Shown piece by piece: positions 18,310 through 18,441 of a stretch of DNA of 64,000 bases. Under the pieces are notes generated by a model. That model was not told where the DNA came from and did no database searches. It saw nothing but the letters and a program-made list of their open reading frames with translations. Source of the DNA: Okamejei kenojei (lineage: Eukaryota); assembly GCA_035221665.1 (NCBI GenBank), contig CM069147.1, positions 45,012,001 through 45,076,000 on the forward strand, given 5' to 3'. Made by a program: the position numbers and the translations under genes. How positions within the stretch are numbered: position 1 is the stretch's first letter; each line of letters opens with the position of its first letter.

Positions 18310-18441
18310 TCAGTCTGAAGAAGTGTCTCGACACGAAACGTCACCCATTCCTTCTCTCCAGCGATGCTGCCTGTCCCGCTGAGTTACTCCAGCATTTTTG
18401 TGTCTATCTTCGGTTTAAACCAGCATCTGCAGTTCCTTCCT
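18310..18441 (+). mobile_element. PLE terminal repeat
   Basis: Near-consensus copy. TSD gcatataacttg at 18291-18302 and 18442-18453. Confidence 0.85.
18315..18342 (+). ncRNA. Minimal type I hammerhead ribozyme motif (best sense-strand example)
   Basis: CUGAAGA (18315-21), extra A, stem II GUGUC-uc-GACAC, GAAA (18335-38), palindromic ACGU helix III, predicted cleavage after GUC at 18342. Activity untested; helix I is only about 2 bp. Confidence 0.65.

Follow-up and report, generated by a model that had tools for sequence, protein, structure and literature searches.

The commonest repeat in the window, by which we mean the whole 64,000-nt stretch of Okamejei kenojei DNA analysed here (contig CM069147.1, positions 45,012,001 to 45,076,000), derives from the terminal repeat (pseudo-LTR) at the end of a Neptune-type Penelope-like element. 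It carries a minimal hammerhead motif of a class known since 2014 from Penelope-like elements. Lone copies in the introns of the host gene, ZFHX3, are very probably inert relics that do not cut the ZFHX3 RNA, and the motif, once inserted, decays as ordinary DNA does, with no clear sign of selection on the inserted copies. Self-BLAST depth reached 35 over this repeat, against at most 8 for the other repeats of the window.

The initial annotation had listed eight core-intact copies of the motif, built around a 5-bp stem II and a palindromic ACGU helix III. The core boxes CUGAAGA and GAAA and the GUC/GUU cleavage triplet were present in all eight, as were the extra nucleotide (A) reported after A9 and the G10.1-C11.1 pair. 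Stem II, however, had to be corrected to 4 bp closed by a tetraloop, because 5 bp would force a loop of 2 nt. It reaches at least 3 bp in six of the eight copies and is broken in the other two (1 bp at 1539, 2 bp at 18090), so the copies are intact in their core boxes but not all in stem II. The palindromic ACGU was found in four copies, and AUGU in the remaining four. The eight motifs are as follows:

27 to 54, + strand: motif with core and stem II intact, AUGU, helix I of 2 bp, located 5' of the first coding exon
1539 to 1566, + strand: motif with core boxes intact and stem II broken, helix I of 0 bp
17595 to 17622, + strand: motif with AUGU and GUU, helix I of 4 bp, in the + arm of the head-to-head pair 17460 to 17693
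18090 to 18117, + strand: motif with stem II broken, helix I of 0 bp, in the + arm of the head-to-head pair 17987 to 18208
18315 to 18342, + strand: minimal type I hammerhead motif with core boxes, extra A, 4-bp stem II, ACGU, GUC and helix I of 2 bp
14133 to 14160, - strand: motif on the antisense strand, from the youngest subfamily, with a helix I of 1 bp
39341 to 39368, - strand: antisense motif in one arm of the head-to-head pair 39290 to 39492, helix I of 2 bp
56721 to 56748, - strand: antisense motif, helix I of 2 bp

The caution already expressed about a short helix I was justified, as it spans 0 to 2 bp in seven of these eight copies; among 38 otherwise intact motifs from a 1.06-Mb sample, it measured 2 bp in 23 and at least 3 bp in seven. 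The motif does not qualify as a canonical type I hammerhead, a form that has a helix III of its own, a helix I of 6 bp, contacts between its loops and a match in Rfam: no monomer fold was predicted, and a search of the window with Rfam gave no hammerhead match at E<=1, as one would expect of a motif that lacks its own helix III. A Plastid-psbJ-4 match at 16977-17097 (E 0.25) was rejected, as it corresponds to a head-to-head pair of the Penelope-type repeat.

The host gene was correctly named as ZFHX3. It lies on the + strand, with 70% identity to ZFHX3 versus 57-58% to ZFHX4, and its coding exons could be located, two of them in the window:

10195 to 12849, + strand: first coding exon of ZFHX3, which defines the sense strand of the host gene
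33473 to 33970, + strand: next coding exon of ZFHX3

The copies had been described as lying in ZFHX3 introns; those at 27 and 1539 sit 5' of the first coding exon, and for these an intronic position is assumed. The introns of this gene are very long, with 109 kb separating coding exons 2 and 3. No exon beyond the third coding exon was confidently found within 170 kb downstream, and this stretch was therefore excluded from the main strand count; a weak candidate for the following exon lies 128 kb further on, over a stretch of about 143.5-271 kb in window coordinates.

With a profile built from 45 natural copies, seeded on motif matches, 43 remnants were detected in the window, 22 on the + and 21 on the - strand, and none in the reversed-sequence control. 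The repeat is thus the commonest and densely seeded, as had been proposed, but the proposed figures of about 30 copies and one per 2 kb were too low, the density being about one per 1.5 kb. A 24-nt motif pattern allowing up to two mismatches gave 16 matches in the window and none in 100 shuffles. Over 264 kb around ZFHX3, a hammerhead descriptor returned 19 matches (0-1 in shuffles), 18 of them from the Penelope-type family, so that other hammerhead families account for at most one of the 19. Across the 2.76-Gb genome, a single 31-nt form occurred 13,437 times, and a loose core pattern matched 153,116 times, equally on both strands, with 38 matches for the backwards control. Sampling of 1.06 Mb irrespective of the repeat yielded 63 core-pattern matches, of which 52 kept stem II, 38 also the 15.2/16.2 pair and about 30 a 2-bp helix I in addition; by extrapolation, complete-looking motifs would number around 70,000 genome-wide. 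In addition, 40 arbitrary 10-kb stretches contained 181 remnants, which extrapolates to about 1.2 million in the genome if these stretches are typical. The two longest remnants of the window, at about 4700-5209 and 15110-15635, include around 400 nt of upstream terminal repeat and the frame end. A 230-aa open frame at 26119-26811 is putatively similar to the final part of a CR1-type LINE protein.

The assignment of the motif to a Penelope-like terminal repeat, also made in the initial annotation, was borne out by the motif positions around the element ORF, with a helix III that could form only between two copies. The end of a GIY-YIG frame was found upstream of several repeat copies. Among 30 loci picked by the GIY-YIG protein, 23 showed the motif 83-118 nt past the frame end, three only a farther copy and four none, while 14 of the 20 loci picked by the N-terminus of a full-length homologue showed it 161-163 nt ahead of the start codon. 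At 20 loci picked by the reverse transcriptase (RT), no 5' direct repeat was seen; this repeat surfaced only via the N-terminus search. Two loci contained an intact ORF of 1,185 aa between direct repeats, each repeat carrying the motif, and these ORFs show RT motifs, YIGET, a CX4CXXC linker and, at the C-terminus, a GIY-YIG endonuclease. Full-length elements have the motif twice, once in each terminal repeat: one precedes the start codon by 162 nt and the other follows the stop by about 240 nt. In five full-length copies the motif-to-motif spacing is 3,935-3,955 nt. The terminal repeats of these five copies differ by 0-1 mismatches over 179-806 aligned nt, and this near identity points to recent activity of the element. 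Every catalytic position and stem II are intact in the youngest copies, and inverted 5'-truncated copies sit on the 5' side of long copies.

Pfam matches to RVT_1 and GIY-YIG were weak (E 5e-4 to 3e-3, below the gathering cut-offs); homologues of the element protein carry PF00078 and PF01541, and its best named relatives come from sharks, rays and a skate. A CX2-5CXXC linker between RT and endonuclease marks the Neptune and Nematis clades (PMC8557442; here and below, statements on cited papers refer to their accessible parts). The clade would be Neptune-type on the basis of this linker, shared with Nematis, and of the indirect link provided by relatives that bear the coral Neptune motif, with Nematis as the alternative.

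Several side observations were made on the element. Three loci contain uninterrupted full-length Neptune-type ORFs with identical terminal repeats; counted from the start codon, two of these ORFs measure 1,185 aa. A long insertion rich in proline and histidine, itself harbouring a minisatellite, lies within the full-length ORF. Three annotated ray or skate proteins, bearing the names of ordinary gene isoforms, include long stretches of the element frame, either through exonisation or as an annotation artefact. In one intact element a splice-donor-like sequence stands just ahead of the start codon, and an acceptor-like pyrimidine tract plus CAG precedes the core. A splice acceptor before the core, as in D. 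virilis, was not supported, because short copies abut the target-site duplication without a common upstream exon; furthermore, no GT..AG was found among 15 of 121 joints, from contigs of doubtful RNA status. These contigs came from the best four of 24 sequencing runs, putatively RNA but in two cases probably DNA; they gave cover over the full element, a signal that is blind to RNA ends and strand.

Relatives of the element were represented by 80 metagenome loci, 42 of which had the frame end and at least 250 nt beyond it. The descriptor used on them demanded the core and a 3-bp stem, but not position, strand, G10.1-C11.1 or the extra base. A sense motif was detected 104-157 nt after the ORF in nine of the 42, and an antisense one in none. 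Stems II and I vary in sequence among these nine relatives and yet pair, with five different paired stems II; helix I spans 3-6 bp in five of them, and in four relatives, at 44-55% identity, stem II is the one published for the Neptune element of a coral. No motif was found with this strict descriptor in the other 33, many of which are only 31-37% identical. Judged from these sequence comparisons, the motif is under selection across lineages. Several of the relatives' hammerheads, on metagenome contigs, have a pyrimidine run followed by CA or GC directly before the core, and a helix I of up to 6 bp.

The fate of the motif after insertion was followed on 447 remnants. The catalytic G12, which lies in a CpG, was mutated in 31.7%, versus 29.0% at CpG sites of the flanks, and in gene bodies the share of copies with a change at G12 was 39.2% in sense and 39.0% in antisense orientation. 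Ten non-CpG core positions showed 5.9% mismatch versus 8.0-10.1% in the flanks, equally on both strands; the p value of this gap ranged from 2e-6 to 0.14 depending on the flank filter (smaller set), and the gap shrank as subfamily-marking columns were removed. The better-kept core can be explained by subfamily differences in the flanks together with the motif-seeded profile, which leaves room for weak selection on the non-CpG core positions. By hand count, none of 100 listed copies altered at 10.2 had a compensating change, and 100 of the 490 double changes in stem II were 72 A x A, 14 A-U, 9 U-A and 5 U x U; eight A x A loci examined all lay inside one other repeat. At 18315, stem II has a U-A pair at 10.2/11.2 where G-C is usual; we read it as chance, because the remnants showed no compensation and the A x A loci were confined to that one repeat. 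The head-to-head pair with the A x A stem II has multiplied as a passenger within its host repeat (about 350 copies by extrapolation), and two further repeats carry a remnant as passenger (5/100 and 13/100 listed matches).

The initial annotation had further suggested that sense copies could nick the ZFHX3 pre-mRNA, and had proposed to look for a depletion of intact cores on the sense strand of introns. The strand test covered 383 kb of gene bodies, namely ZFHX3 from the first to the third coding exon plus 25 stretches of 10 kb lying in three CSMD-like genes, which were located by their CUB domains. Remnants numbered 91 in sense and 95 in antisense, intact cores 19 and 16, and cores with stem II 11 and 10, so that no sense-strand depletion was seen in these gene bodies. 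For the proportion of intact cores in sense orientation, the 95% interval was 0.37-0.71, and on 35 intact cores this excludes only a strong sense-strand effect. In the probable next ZFHX3 intron, the sense and antisense counts were 27 and 31 for copies and 3 and 8 for cores. As for folding, a monomer hammerhead was predicted in none of the copies folded, with a pairing probability of helix I of at most 0.005, and in the young subfamily a competing hairpin is predicted to absorb the cleavage triplet. The predicted energy of an intermolecular helix III was -1.7 kcal/mol for ACGU and +2.6 kcal/mol for AUGU. With no sense depletion, ordinary CpG decay at G12 and no monomer fold, nicking of the pre-mRNA was not supported. 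In published work, monomers of minimal motifs were inactive and dimers or trimers cut weakly (PMC4209133), one of nine Xenopus dimers being cut, and the Anolis PAc motif cuts only when the element protein is added (PMC11167929). By analogy, if the ribozyme studied here cuts, it would do so only as a dimer assisted by protein, within full-length element RNA.

It is very improbable, in our opinion, that sense copies cut the ZFHX3 pre-mRNA even at a low rate, by means of a second copy or of a protein acting in trans, and thereby affect expression. Five + strand copies of the window keep an intact core in the alignment test, partners are plentiful, since about 30 of the 63 core-pattern matches are complete up to the 2-bp helix I, and recently active full-length elements could supply a protein like the one that allows the Anolis motif to cut (PMC11167929). 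However, neither sense depletion nor faster decay of sense copies was seen, helix III is predicted to be weak with either ACGU or AUGU, and the nearest sense neighbours of the 18315 copy have a broken stem II (18090) or are held in a long hairpin (17595). In addition, the protein-binding region in Anolis is the start of the ORF (PMC11167929), which is missing from the short remnants, and the low activity of published dimers and trimers, including those of Xenopus, speaks against cutting. An effect on the host gene, if there is any, might come not from cleavage but from head-to-head pairs folding as long double-stranded RNA hairpins in either orientation, a reading we hold as possible, if on the doubtful side. 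Such pairs include 68 of the 164 remnants around ZFHX3, and the seven located in the window are predicted to fold with energies between -92 and -160 kcal/mol and to form 53-90 base pairs over their centre:

16917 to 17121: head-to-head remnant pair
17460 to 17693: head-to-head remnant pair, in which the 17595 motif would lie hidden within a predicted hairpin of 89 bp (-160 kcal/mol)
17987 to 18208: head-to-head remnant pair, predicted to form a long hairpin (-110 kcal/mol)
24426 to 24659: head-to-head remnant pair
39290 to 39492: head-to-head remnant pair
56412 to 56628: head-to-head remnant pair
62475 to 62674: head-to-head remnant pair

According to these folding models, the pairs are possible sources of double-stranded RNA and possible substrates for editing in pre-mRNA.

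The origin of the remnants was approached through their ends. The insertion that holds the 18315 motif is delimited as follows:

18291 to 18302, + strand: left target-site duplication, 12 bp
18303 to 18441, + strand: 139-bp insertion, a 5'-truncated pseudo-LTR end with the optional tail
18442 to 18453, + strand: right target-site duplication, 12 bp

Target-site duplications were detected on 28 of 397 copies, against 1.2 in the control. After removal of two tandem duplications, 17 of the 26 copies so flanked start within 5 nt of C3, and the 3' junctions lie 88-97 nt from C3 in 16 of the 28 and 126-129 nt in seven. In the unbiased set, the 3' ends also formed two peaks (140/343 and 129/343), about 35 nt apart, and these two end points correspond to the optional 30-40-bp Penelope tail. 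Most remnants are inserts of 100-140 bp starting 2-6 nt ahead of the core, and not at the cut site. Cleavage-defined 5' ends were rejected as their main source, with only 18 of 343 starting near that site; for the same reason, we take the templates to be uncut, with copies stopping just before the core. Classification of 209 anchored copies gave 76 short ones, 80 in head-to-head arrangement, 48 that extend upstream and only five with a direct partner within 150 nt upstream, the arrangement of a retrozyme-type tandem. In short copies, the family base was kept with frequencies of 0.82 at position -1, 0.74 at -2, 0.71 at -3, 0.47 at -4 and, weakly, 0.41 at -5, beyond which they fell to background. 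The bases immediately before the core are YCAGTCT, which we take to fit the initiator consensus. Internal initiator-type promoters have been published for Drosophila and rotifer Penelope elements, that of Drosophila being an Inr/DPE promoter that includes RGACGTGY.

The start-site reading that follows derives from the insertion ends. Element RNA would begin 3-5 nt before the core, at the initiator-like site; the element protein would nick the target and prime reverse transcription within the leader of the RNA, where two sites, about 95 and 130 nt downstream, would serve as alternative starts, and synthesis would most often run off at the 5' end of the uncut RNA, giving a 100-140-bp copy that is integrated. 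Two run-off copies at one target would yield head-to-head pairs, which we infer because the Anolis PAc protein nicks and extends both strands (PMC11167929); the published alternative for palindromes is self-priming on an antisense template. We give about an even chance to the proposal that the approximately one million short remnants are strong-stop-like run-off cDNAs from capped, uncut RNA. An extra G is the mark of a copied cap. It was enriched genome-wide (2,773 G versus 1,669 T, for an expected ratio of 0.73), an excess that is partly artefactual because joins with inverted partners add G, and in cleaned sets it was not significant (7/16, p=0.11; 10/24, p=0.08).

Two other explanations were weighed. 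It could be that in this lineage the motif has ceased to work as a ribozyme, full-length elements included, and persists chiefly as core promoter and leader, in which YCAGTCT ahead of the core would be initiator-like and ACGTC, which overlies the cut site, downstream-promoter-like. We regard this as rather unlikely, since all catalytic positions and stem II remain intact in the youngest copies and the promoter role is putative. It would agree with the competing hairpin that occupies the cleavage triplet in the young subfamily, with the mostly uncut templates, with the RGACGTGY-containing promoter of Drosophila Penelope and with a helix I of 2 bp in the intact young element versus 3-6 bp in five of the nine relatives and mostly 3-5 bp in the published alignment, but the D. 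virilis motif likewise has a 2-bp helix I (PMC4209133). Cutting is also dispensable for insertion in Anolis PAc, whose hammerhead mutants insert in vitro unimpaired (PMC11167929), as a promoter and leader role would allow. Alternatively, the short copies could constitute a separate non-autonomous element, SINE- or retrozyme-like, produced by short masters whose boundary would be the observed 5' end. That 156 of the 209 anchored copies are short or head-to-head, that non-autonomous Penelope derivatives have been published and that some remnants multiplied as passengers in other repeats would all be in line with such masters; nevertheless, short and ORF-linked copies bear identical subfamily marks and end at the same two points, and direct partners are rare, unlike in retrozymes, which makes separate masters quite improbable.

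As a ribozyme finding the motif is ordinary, and the evidence points to inert relics. What sets the family a little above routine is how numerous its copies are, together with young elements that are still intact and a sharply defined 5' boundary. Intact elements with identical terminal repeats represent a recently active vertebrate Neptune-type element and provide a direct way to probe the role of the hammerhead; in the accessible parts of the compared literature, we met no biochemical study of the Neptune clade. The sharp 5' boundary of the remnants bears on where the RNA starts, on the use of uncut templates and on how Penelope makes its tandem and inverted ends. Neither a pile-up of 5' ends before the core nor this repeat family was found described in the literature covered, which lay outside Repbase/Dfam, where the family may well be named, and outside most subscription journals. 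If the run-off reading is true, the genome would record, in fossil form, where the first reverse-transcription step of Penelope begins and ends, the 5' hammerhead would seldom be cut in templates, and the motifs would form the densest hammerhead-like set reported for a vertebrate in the accessible parts of the compared literature. Should sense copies cut after all, contrary to what the evidence indicates, the motifs that look intact, which number in the tens of thousands, would be relevant to how genes are expressed in this lineage.

The closest known motifs are the minimal hammerheads (min-HHR) that Cervera & de la Pena described in 2014 from metazoan Penelope-like elements, where they lie in the pseudo-LTRs (PMC4209133). 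Both share CUGANGA with one extra base, G10.1-C11.1 and GAAA-C-GU-H without an own helix III, and in both the motif is present in the two terminal repeats and is found mostly as single motifs from truncated copies, as well as in opposite-strand pairs. In contrast, helix I has 2 bp and stem II 4 bp here, and a uniform motif replaces many variable families. The 153,116 core matches, obtained with a looser pattern, compare with about 4,000 in coelacanth and 9,000 in Xenopus in that paper, and no cartilaginous fish appeared in the searched file of its supplement. The stem II of the coral Neptune motif (Fig. S3 of PMC4209133) is that shared by the relatives at 44-55% identity.

Type I hammerheads in huge numbers, with a link to Penelope terminal repeats, are also known from non-LTR retrozymes (Cervera & de la Pena 2020, PMC7229834), with 126,247 of them in axolotl (PMC7229834; Li et al. 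2026, bioRxiv 10.64898/2026.07.22.740005). Retrozymes consist of tandem units of 170-400 nt, which in the 2020 paper have canonical motifs and are accompanied by circular RNAs, whereas the copies described here are solo or head-to-head and carry the minimal motif. Domesticated intronic hammerheads of the RECK type are single copies that are kept across species and withstand decay; here, the family-wide decay of G12 looks neutral, a pattern from which a single kept copy could still depart.

Regarding the element itself, it resembles the Neptune clade (Craig et al. 2021, PMC8557442) in its RT, CX2-5CXXC linker and C-terminal GIY-YIG, and also in its partial tandems, inverted 5'-truncated copy and optional 30-40-bp tail. 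It differs in that its ORF of 1,185 aa has a long proline-rich insertion, versus 800-930 aa in the longest homologues, and in that its start codon comes after the tail. Finally, in the Poseidon element PAc of Anolis (Frangieh et al. 2024, PMC11167929), which belongs to another clade, the ORF begins inside stem II and not 162 nt downstream, and the accessible account describes no pile-up of 5' ends before the core. As in the element studied here, two internal starts of reverse transcription explain the tail in PAc, and the main template is uncut RNA.
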